From Escherichia coli (GTDB lineage Bacteria; Pseudomonadota; Gammaproteobacteria; Enterobacterales; Enterobacteriaceae), in NCBI RefSeq assembly GCF_016903815.1, contig NZ_CP069973.1: 64,000 nt of DNA; one strand, given 5' to 3'. Made by a program: the position numbers and the translations under genes. Positions 16,411 to 60,596 of this stretch are shown here, piece by piece. Within the stretch, counting starts at the first letter, position 1. Each line of letters begins with the position of its first letter. Below the pieces are notes generated by a model. The model ran no database searches. It was not told the origin of the DNA and worked only from the letters and a program-made list of their open reading frames with translations.

Positions 16411-19777
<3,367 letters not shown>

Positions 19778-19843
19778 TCAGTAAAAGCGAATGGAGGGAG
19801 ATTACACGAGATAAAGAACGCGAGCGACAGTAAATTAGGTGCG

Positions 19844-19931
19844 AAAAAAAACCTGCGCATCCGCGCAGGTTGGTGCAAGAGACAGGGTACGAAGAGCGTA
19901 CCGAATAATCTCACCAATCAATACCTCTGGG
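19844..19931 (-). ncRNA. omrA: OmrA small RNA (RygA)
   Basis: The minus-strand sequence CCCAGAGGTATTGATTGGTGAGATTATTCGGTACGCTCTTCGTACCCTGTCTCTTGCACCAACCTGCGCGGATGCGCAGG followed by a U-run matches OmrA, with a terminator hairpin, in the aas-galR intergenic region. Confidence 0.85.
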
Positions 19932-20045
19932 ATCTTGATTGTGGTCTGCACGACGACTCTTCGCCAGCGAGAAAACGCAAAGGAATGAAGGGAAATGCAA
20001 CGAGGTGTGTAAATTGTCGGTTACTGTTACAGATTGATGACCGGC

Positions 20046-20128
20046 AAAAAAAAACCTGCGCATCTGCGCAGGCTGGTGTAATTCATGTGCTCAACCCGAA
20101 GTTGACTTCACCTATCAATACCTCTGGG
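20046..20128 (-). ncRNA. omrB: OmrB small RNA (RygB)
   Basis: The minus-strand sequence CCCAGAGGTATTGATAGGTGAAGTCAACTTCGGGTTGAGCACATGAATTACACCAGCCTGCGCAGATGCGCAGG followed by a U-run shares its 5' and 3' ends with OmrA. Confidence 0.85.
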
Positions 20129-20341
20129 ATCACCACTTTAGCAACCTGAAGCCAAACGCCACCAGCGGTCAATCGCAACAGCGTTTCGCAAAGTGTAACC
20201 AAAGGTTTGCAATCTCTTTTTTTGTCTTACTTATTTGCGTTTGGCTCACATTCCCACGATGAAAACACGCCACCCCTTGAACCAACGGGCGTTTTCCGTA
20301 ACACTGAAAGAATGTAAGCGTTTACCCACTAAGGTATTTTC

Positions 20342-21373
20342 ATGGCGACCATAAAGGATGTAGCCCGACTGGCAGGCGTTTCAGTCGCCACCGTTTCCCG
20401 CGTCATTAATAATTCACCTAAAGCCAGTGAAGCTTCCCGGCTGGCTGTGCATAGTGCAATGGAGTCTCTTAGCTATCACCCGAACGCCAACGCCCGTGCG
20501 CTGGCGCAGCAGACCACTGAAACGGTCGGTCTGATCGTTGGTGATGTTTCCGATCCGTTTTTCGGTGCAATGGTGAAAGCGGTCGAACAGGTGGCTTATC
20601 ACACCGGTAATTTCTTATTGATTGGCAACGGTTACCACAACGAACAAAAAGAGCGTCAGGCTATTGAGCAACTGATCCGCCATCGCTGTGCTGCGTTGGT
20701 CGTCCATGCCAAAATGATCCCGGATGCCGATTTAGCCTCATTAATGAAACAAATGCCCGGTATGGTGCTGATCAACCGTATCCTGCCTGGCTTTGAAAAC
20801 CGTTGTATTGCTCTTGACGATCGTTACGGTGCCTGGCTGGCAACGCGTCATTTAATTCAGCAAGGTCATACCCGCATTGGTTATCTGTGCTCTAACCACT
20901 CTATTTCTGACGCCGAAGATCGTCTGCAAGGGTATTACGATGCCCTTGCTGAAAGTGGTATTGCGGCCAATGACCGGCTGGTGACATTTGGCGAACCAGA
21001 CGAAAGCGGCGGCGAACAGGCAATGACCGAGCTTTTGGGACGAGGAAGAAATTTCACTGCGGTAGCCTGTTATAACGATTCAATGGCGGCGGGTGCGATG
21101 GGCGTTCTCAATGATAATGGTATTGATGTACCGGGTGAGATTTCGTTAATTGGCTTTGATGATGTGCTGGTGTCACGCTATGTGCGTCCGCGCCTGACCA
21201 CCGTGCGTTACCCAATCGTGACGATGGCGACCCAGGCTGCCGAACTGGCTTTGGCGCTGGCGGATAATCGCCCTCTCCCGGAAATCACTAATGTCTTTAG
21301 TCCGACGCTGGTACGTCGTCATTCAGTGTCAACTCCGTCGCTGGAGGCAAGTCATCATGCAACCAGCGACTAA
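20342..21373 (+). CDS. galR: Galactose operon repressor GalR (LacI family)
   Basis: 343-aa ORF; MATIKDVARLAGVSVATVSRVINNSPKASEASRLAVHSAMESLSYHPNANARALAQQ. Confidence 0.93.
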   Translation: MATIKDVARLAGVSVATVSRVINNSPKASEASRLAVHSAMESLSYHPNANARALAQQTTETVGLIVGDVSDPFFGAMVKAVEQVAYHTGNFLLIGNGYHNEQKERQAIEQLIRHRCAALVVHAKMIPDADLASLMKQMPGMVLINRILPGFENRCIALDDRYGAWLATRHLIQQGHTRIGYLCSNHSISDAEDRLQGYYDALAESGIAANDRLVTFGEPDESGGEQAMTELLGRGRNFTAVACYNDSMAAGAMGVLNDNGIDVPGEISLIGFDDVLVSRYVRPRLTTVRYPIVTMATQAAELALALADNRPLPEITNVFSPTLVRRHSVSTPSLEASHHATSD

Positions 21374-60412: not shown

Positions 60413-60596
60413 ATTTCTCTGAGATGTTCGCAAGCGGGCCAGTCCCCTGAGCCGATATTTCATACCACAAGAATGTGGCGCTCCGCGGTTGGTGAGCATG
60501 CTCGGTCCGTCCGAGAAGCCTTAAAACTGCGACGACACATTCACCTTGAACCAAGGGTTCAAGGGTTACAGCCTGCGGCGGCATCTCGGAGATTCC
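60413..60596 (+). ncRNA. ssrS: 6S RNA (regulator of sigma70 RNA polymerase)
   Basis: ATTTCTCTGAGATGTTCGCAAGCGGGCCAGTCCCCTGAGCCGATATTTCATACCACAAGAATGTGGCGCTCCGCGGTTGGTGAGCATGCTCGG... matches 6S RNA, downstream of zapA and upstream of fau. A -10-like TAGAGT lies just upstream. Confidence 0.88.

Follow-up and report, generated by a model that had tools for sequence, protein, structure and literature searches.

Identification of a tandem small RNA gene pair as omrA and omrB in the aas-galR intergenic spacer of Escherichia coli

The DNA analysed here is a 64-kb stretch of the Escherichia coli genome, hereafter named the window. Within it, the 586-bp intergenic spacer between aas and galR holds two small RNA units, both on the minus strand. 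The aas gene (17597-19756, minus strand) is the downstream flank on the same strand as the RNAs and was placed from the RefSeq annotation of identical DNA and from tblastn synteny. The divergent flank, galR (20342-21373, plus strand), was placed from the open reading frame listing, annotation and synteny. A scan of the whole window with Rfam 15 returned two matches to the OmrA-B family (RF00079), on 19844-19931 (96.6 bits, E-value 6.4e-18) and on 20047-20128 (86.1 bits, E-value 2.3e-15). Both cover model positions 1 to 87 of 87 without truncation and score far above the curated gathering score of 40 bits, and the gap between them measures 115 bp (19932-20046). An earlier note on this DNA had described two RNAs of roughly 85 nt, about 115 bp apart, and had named them OmrA and OmrB, to be checked against Rfam. 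Size, spacing and family were all borne out, with units of 88 nt and 82-83 nt. The strand, on which the earlier note was silent, is minus for both genes. The 88-nt omrA (19844-19931, transcription start at 19931) is the copy closer to aas, and omrB (20046/20047-20128, 82-83 nt, transcription start at 20128) is the copy closer to galR, transcribed upstream of omrA.

Comparison with K-12 MG1655 showed that 585 of 586 aligned columns of the aas-galR spacer are identical, the sole difference being one additional T in the OmrB terminator tail. The MG1655 record annotates the ncRNA genes omrA (b4444, 88 nt) and omrB (b4445, 82 nt) at matching positions, and OmrA is identical to its K-12 counterpart over 88 of 88 nt. 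We take rygA and rygB (sraE) to be former names of these genes. Transcripts, on which the earlier note had made its assignment depend, are documented for the K-12 locus, where the DNA is the same but for that one T (PMC2588501, PMC5175337). Of 5426 complete E. coli genomes, 5423 contain the 701-bp surroundings, and in 5400 the identity is at least 99%. We regard it as almost certain that the pair at 19844-20128 represents the E. coli genes omrA and omrB. Both genes are already known at this locus, and the window adds nothing new to the known picture. Three of the 5426 genomes gave no match to window positions 19700-20400, and among the 5428 matching places for that segment two sit on plasmid-labelled records. 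Strains 600468 and 222 have identical DNA here, and their PGAP RefSeq annotations leave the interval from aas to galR (19757-20341) without any feature. These missing ncRNA entries reflect the scope of the pipeline and are an annotation gap, with no biological difference behind it. As PGAP leaves the spacer empty in other strains, recognising omrA and omrB from sequence alone is useful annotation work.

The two copies were then aligned with each other. The first 21 columns, corresponding to the 5' end, are identical at 20 positions, and the last 35 columns (54-88), which include the terminator, at 32. The centre (columns 22-53) keeps 7 identical columns of 32 and contains a 6-nt gap. The near-identical ends and divergent centres that had been noticed before were thus recovered, and a repeat search likewise picked out both conserved blocks (96% and 89% identity). 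Both units start with CCCAGAGGTATTGAT, a 15-mer present exactly twice in the 64-kb window, whereas chance would give 0.11 seed matches when up to two mismatches are allowed, and none of 100 shuffled sequences contained two or more. The 5' seed CCCAGAGGUAUUGAU lies at 19917-19931 (minus strand) in OmrA and at 20114-20128 (minus strand) in OmrB, as located by exact pattern match and, for OmrB, also by the alignment. Nucleotides 1 to 15 of OmrA are unpaired in both the minimum free energy and the centroid structures, and the seed bases are upper-case, that is highly conserved, in the independent Rfam consensus. At the other end, a terminator scan identified in both copies a hairpin of 9 base pairs, 6 of them G-C, with a loop of 4 nt and a run of 8-9 T behind it. 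The intrinsic terminator of OmrA, AACCTGCGC-GGAT-GCGCAGGTT followed by U8, is located at 19844-19871 and that of OmrB, AGCCTGCGC-AGAT-GCGCAGGTT followed by U9, at 20046-20074, both on the minus strand and both recovered by the terminator scan, the folds and the covariation analysis described below. In the scan and the folds, a GGUG...CACC closing helix precedes this 3' Rho-independent hairpin and its U-tail. Such a run of 8-9 U after a terminator hairpin is a sequence hallmark of Hfq-dependent small RNAs. Both RNAs fold more stably than their dinucleotide shuffles (z-scores of -2.7 and -3.1). The OmrB tail (20046-20054) counts 9 T, versus 8 T in K-12 MG1655, and E. albertii and the E. coli genomes with a 100% match to the window share the 9-T form. 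Among enterobacterial copies, U-tail lengths range from 8 to 10.

A sigma-70 consensus scan of positions 19700-20400 found no promoter, as expected for weak, activator-dependent promoters. Promoter elements were therefore read by hand and then compared with conservation and with the literature. Upstream of omrA, a -10 hexamer CACAAT (-12 to -7; 19938-19943, minus strand) carries a C at -12, and CCACAAT is kept in most of 18 species. Upstream of omrB, an extended -10 element TGcTAAAGT (20135-20143, minus strand) consists of TAAAGT at -12 to -7, with a T at -12, and of TG at -15/-14. According to a review, the -12C of omrA is a sigma-S determinant and the -12T of omrB a sigma-70-type feature (PMC12692685).

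The earlier note expected both genes to be regulated by OmpR and called for a search for OmpR boxes upstream of each. For this search we built a matrix from six 20-bp sites, ompF F1-F3 and ompC C1-C3, all of which were confirmed in K-12, where they lie in contiguous tandem upstream of the two genes. The best match in the spacer, at 11.2 bits, is an OmpR/RstA-type box of omrB, CAAACCTTTGGTTACACTTT (-81 to -62; 20190-20209, minus strand), which ranks 15 among about 128,000 window positions. Its core, TTACACTTTGC, is almost invariant in 18 species (10 of 11 positions). Two published promoter positions, T-75 (window position 20203) and A-68 (20196), both fall inside this match, and the combined T-75C and A-68G changes in the omrB promoter lowered activation by plasmid-borne OmpR from 81-fold to 3.3-fold (PMC13425233). 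A second conserved omrB box, GCTGTTGCGATTG (-54 to -42; 20170-20182, minus strand), was identified in the cross-species alignment.

Upstream of omrA the same OmpR matrix gave no convincing box, the best match reaching 4.2 bits at -109 to -90 (rank about 750). The call for a box upstream of each gene was thus answered for omrB by a strong match containing the published positions, while for omrA the matrix alone did not provide one. The expectation of OmpR regulation itself is backed by the omrB box and by published in vitro transcription, in which OmpR-P activated both promoters from -114/+50 templates while a -60 omrA template was unresponsive (PMC5175337). Aligning 18 tandem loci delineated four conserved blocks in the omrA promoter, TGTAACA, ACAC..CT.GTT.CA.TT, TCATTC..TTGC.TTTT and GCTGG, a count which agrees with the number of conserved regions in PMC13425233. 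TGTAACA (-100 to -94; 20025-20031, minus strand) is invariant in the 18 species and lies within the weak 4.2-bit match. The box ACACACCTCGTTGCATTT (-79 to -62; 19993-20010, minus strand) is a candidate OmpR site found by both cross-species and promoter-promoter alignment, although it scores less than 4 bits with the matrix. A further conserved box, TCATTCCTTTGCGTTTTC (-57 to -40; 19971-19988, minus strand), was identified in the cross-species alignment. When the 114-bp promoter regions of omrA (19932-20045) and omrB (20129-20242) were compared, their gapped global alignment scored better than 300 of 300 shuffles and paired the OmpR-like box of omrB with the -79 to -62 block of omrA; CGCTGG near -38 is common to both promoters. 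This alignment suggests that the ancestral duplication took in the promoter as well. The -79 to -62 block, which falls in the -114 to -60 interval required for OmpR-P activation (PMC5175337), is the most likely candidate for a degenerate OmpR site of omrA.

To place the pair among its relatives, the 15-mer seed was sought in one genome per species, and at least 120 stretches carrying it were obtained. About 70 of the 120 stretches listed came from unrelated phyla, appeared to be coding and had no terminator; these were set aside as chance occurrences. One E. coli locus (L111, two copies) was taken out of the count of relatives. At least 66 copies in at least 46 other Enterobacterales loci combine the seed, NGGUG, a variable centre, CACC, the hairpin and the U-run. 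They belong to Escherichia albertii, Citrobacter, Enterobacter, Kosakonia, Kluyvera, Pluralibacter, Mangrovibacter, Serratia, Dickeya, Pectobacterium, Edwardsiella, Pantoea, Erwinia, Tatumella and Rahnella. A tblastn search with the GalR and Aas proteins of the window showed that galR and/or aas adjoin the RNA in all 40 loci with a detected flanking gene, among the 46 listed; the remaining 6, mostly short loci, gave no tblastn match to either protein. A close tandem pair like that of the window is present in at least about 20 loci, the E. coli one excluded.

Covariation was evaluated on an alignment of 67 copies, representing 65 distinct sequences. The seed was the retrieval pattern, so that its invariance in the 67 copies follows by construction and is not independent evidence. 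Across the 65 distinct sequences, 99.8% of the cells of the terminator helix are paired, and at three pairs both partners have changed (U-A to C-G, G-C to A-U and C-G to U-A). Compensatory changes in the terminator amount to 27 cells, versus 5.2 expected in shuffles, and pairing was lost when the partner columns were slid. In the GGUG/CACC helix pairing is 100% but no base varies, so that it brings no covariation information. Family membership, identity with K-12, anatomy, synteny, conservation and the OmpR-like box of omrB are established by these comparisons.

Single-copy Omr loci were found in Serratia, Dickeya, Pectobacterium, Rahnella, Erwinia and Tatumella. They have in common with the E. 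coli pair the 15-nt seed, the GGUG...CACC helix, the terminator and the aas/galR neighbourhood, but only one copy was detected in each and the centre is longer or shorter, giving overall lengths of 72-110 nt. Their terminator stems carry compensatory substitutions (CCUACGC/GCGUAGG and CCCACGC/GCGUGGG). Single omr copies carry an omrB-type promoter (PMC13425233). In Pantoea, two Omr copies lie about 2 kb apart, versus about 115-200 bp in close pairs (L030, 2747-4879; L059, 647-2770; L076/L077). The upstream Pantoea copy is short (75-76 nt) and the aas-proximal copy long (91-110 nt). In L030, the copies flank a 579-aa open reading frame with PBP dimerisation and transpeptidase domains, corresponding to a class B penicillin-binding protein.

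We also evaluated the pairing of the common 5' end with known targets. Nucleotides 1-9 (CCCAGAGGU) are complementary to ompT from +12 to +20 (ACUUCUGGG) and to ompR from -19 to -11 (ACCUUUGGG), in both cases near the translation start. These two sites were validated by compensatory mutations (PMC2588501). In duplex energy (RNAduplex), 12 of 500 shuffled seeds did better than the real one on ompT and 7 of 500 on ompR, while the cirA pairing, with 174 of 500, was not better than shuffled seeds. The 39 background translation-initiation regions of the window reach similar energies, up to -22.6 kcal/mol, and 3 of the 39 contain 9-bp seed runs. Duplex energy and seed-run length were therefore rejected as a test for target prediction, being unspecific against this background. 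Given the unspecificity of these simple calculations, target regulation, dependence on Hfq and RNase E, and feedback on ompR-envZ are taken from the literature. The dependence on Hfq was reported for RNAs of identical sequence (PMC2588501).

The order omrB, omrA, aas in series on the minus strand could also be read as a pair of cis-acting leaders or attenuators of aas rather than trans-acting RNAs, a reading that might draw on two Leu_leader matches in the spacer. We consider it extremely improbable. Those matches, at 27.8 and 23.2 bits, are far under the Leu_leader gathering score of 50 and are overlapped by OmrA-B matches three to four times stronger, and both units are equipped with a conserved promoter of their own and with a strong terminator ending in U8-9. 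The Pantoea copies keep this layout though split by a 2-kb gene, and the seed pairs with distant mRNAs, as documented by compensatory mutations (PMC2588501). In the low-threshold Rfam scan of the spacer, matches to Leu_leader, SgrS and TeloSII_ncR49, all sub-threshold and overlapping the Omr genes or the omrB promoter, were attributed to chance or terminator similarity.

No more credible is a pair of paralogous small protein-coding genes. Two small open reading frames of 38 aa (19835-19951) and 39 aa (20083-20202) do exist on the minus strand in the same frame, and both read IPEVLIGE through the seed, but this common peptide is merely the translated duplicated seed. The GTG or TTG start codons of both frames precede the mapped transcription starts, the centres vary among copies and species by indels whose lengths are not divisible by three, and conservation tracks the RNA helices with compensatory changes. 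Finally, G+C-rich terminator hairpins are common, which is all that speaks for a chance or generic repeat in place of RNA genes, such as a REP-like element or two unrelated terminators, and that reading is refuted by the Rfam matches (E-values of 1e-15 to 1e-18), by the seed count (two against 0.11 expected) and by the recurrence of seed, terminator and galR-aas position in at least 46 other Enterobacterales loci.

Taken as omrA and omrB, the two genes would work as follows. First omrB and then omrA would be transcribed from the minus strand, each from its own promoter and each stopped by its own intrinsic terminator. Phosphorylated OmpR would activate both promoters; omrA would additionally depend on sigma-S via its -12C, and omrB would respond to RstA in multicopy. 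The shared single-stranded 5' end (CCCAGAGGUAUUGAU...) is predicted to base-pair with target mRNAs, and Hfq and RNase E would help this seed pairing to lower their translation and stability. The published targets, which would presumably be shared by the present pair, are ompT, cirA, fecA, fepA, csgD, flhDC, dgcM, flgM, btuB and ompR-envZ, and pairing with ompR would close a negative feedback loop. The control of outer-membrane proteins put forward in the earlier note therefore remains a part of the picture, although the published regulon now reaches well beyond them. Transcription, Hfq dependence, OmpR activation and in vivo target pairing come from literature on identical sequences and, by analogy, would hold for the window.

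The omrA box TGTAACA starts about 15 bp after the OmrB U-run. With such tight packing and a 9-U tail, OmrB read-through or terminator efficiency might modulate the omrA promoter or yield an OmrB-OmrA co-transcript. We judge this very unlikely, and nothing that we saw argues for such an effect. If true, it would be a further level of control on top of the differential regulation already known for the two RNAs.

Other Hfq-binding small RNAs act in a comparable manner. MicF and RybB, like OmrA and OmrB, carry short conserved 5' seeds that pair near the translation starts of outer-membrane protein mRNAs. MicF is OmpR-activated like OmrA and OmrB, and RybB likewise uses its 5' end. To our knowledge, the MicF and RybB sequences are unrelated to those of OmrA and OmrB and belong to other Rfam families, and we know of no tandem duplicates of either, nor of any comparable feedback on ompR-envZ. 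This comparison also draws on the discussions in PMC2588501 and PMC13425233.

Elsewhere in the window, two other RNAs gave full-length Rfam matches, 6S RNA (ssrS) at 60413-60596 (plus strand, 139.8 bits) and a Sib antitoxin RNA (RF00113) at 61245-61395 (plus strand, 133.8 bits). Positions 20400-45000 were found in one piece, over at least 80% of their length, in only 151 of 5426 E. coli genomes. This part of the window contains a partial IS3-family transposase and a truncated ygeQ (31895-33634), and an IS1A element (34894-35591) between actS and uacT. A tRNA-Gly gene (33863-33933, minus strand) is located between the IS3-family/ygeQ segment and the IS1A element. In K-12 this place is occupied by an ETT2 remnant and the xdh-ygf cluster, and the arrangement at 31895-35591 presumably arose when most of both was lost in association with IS elements.
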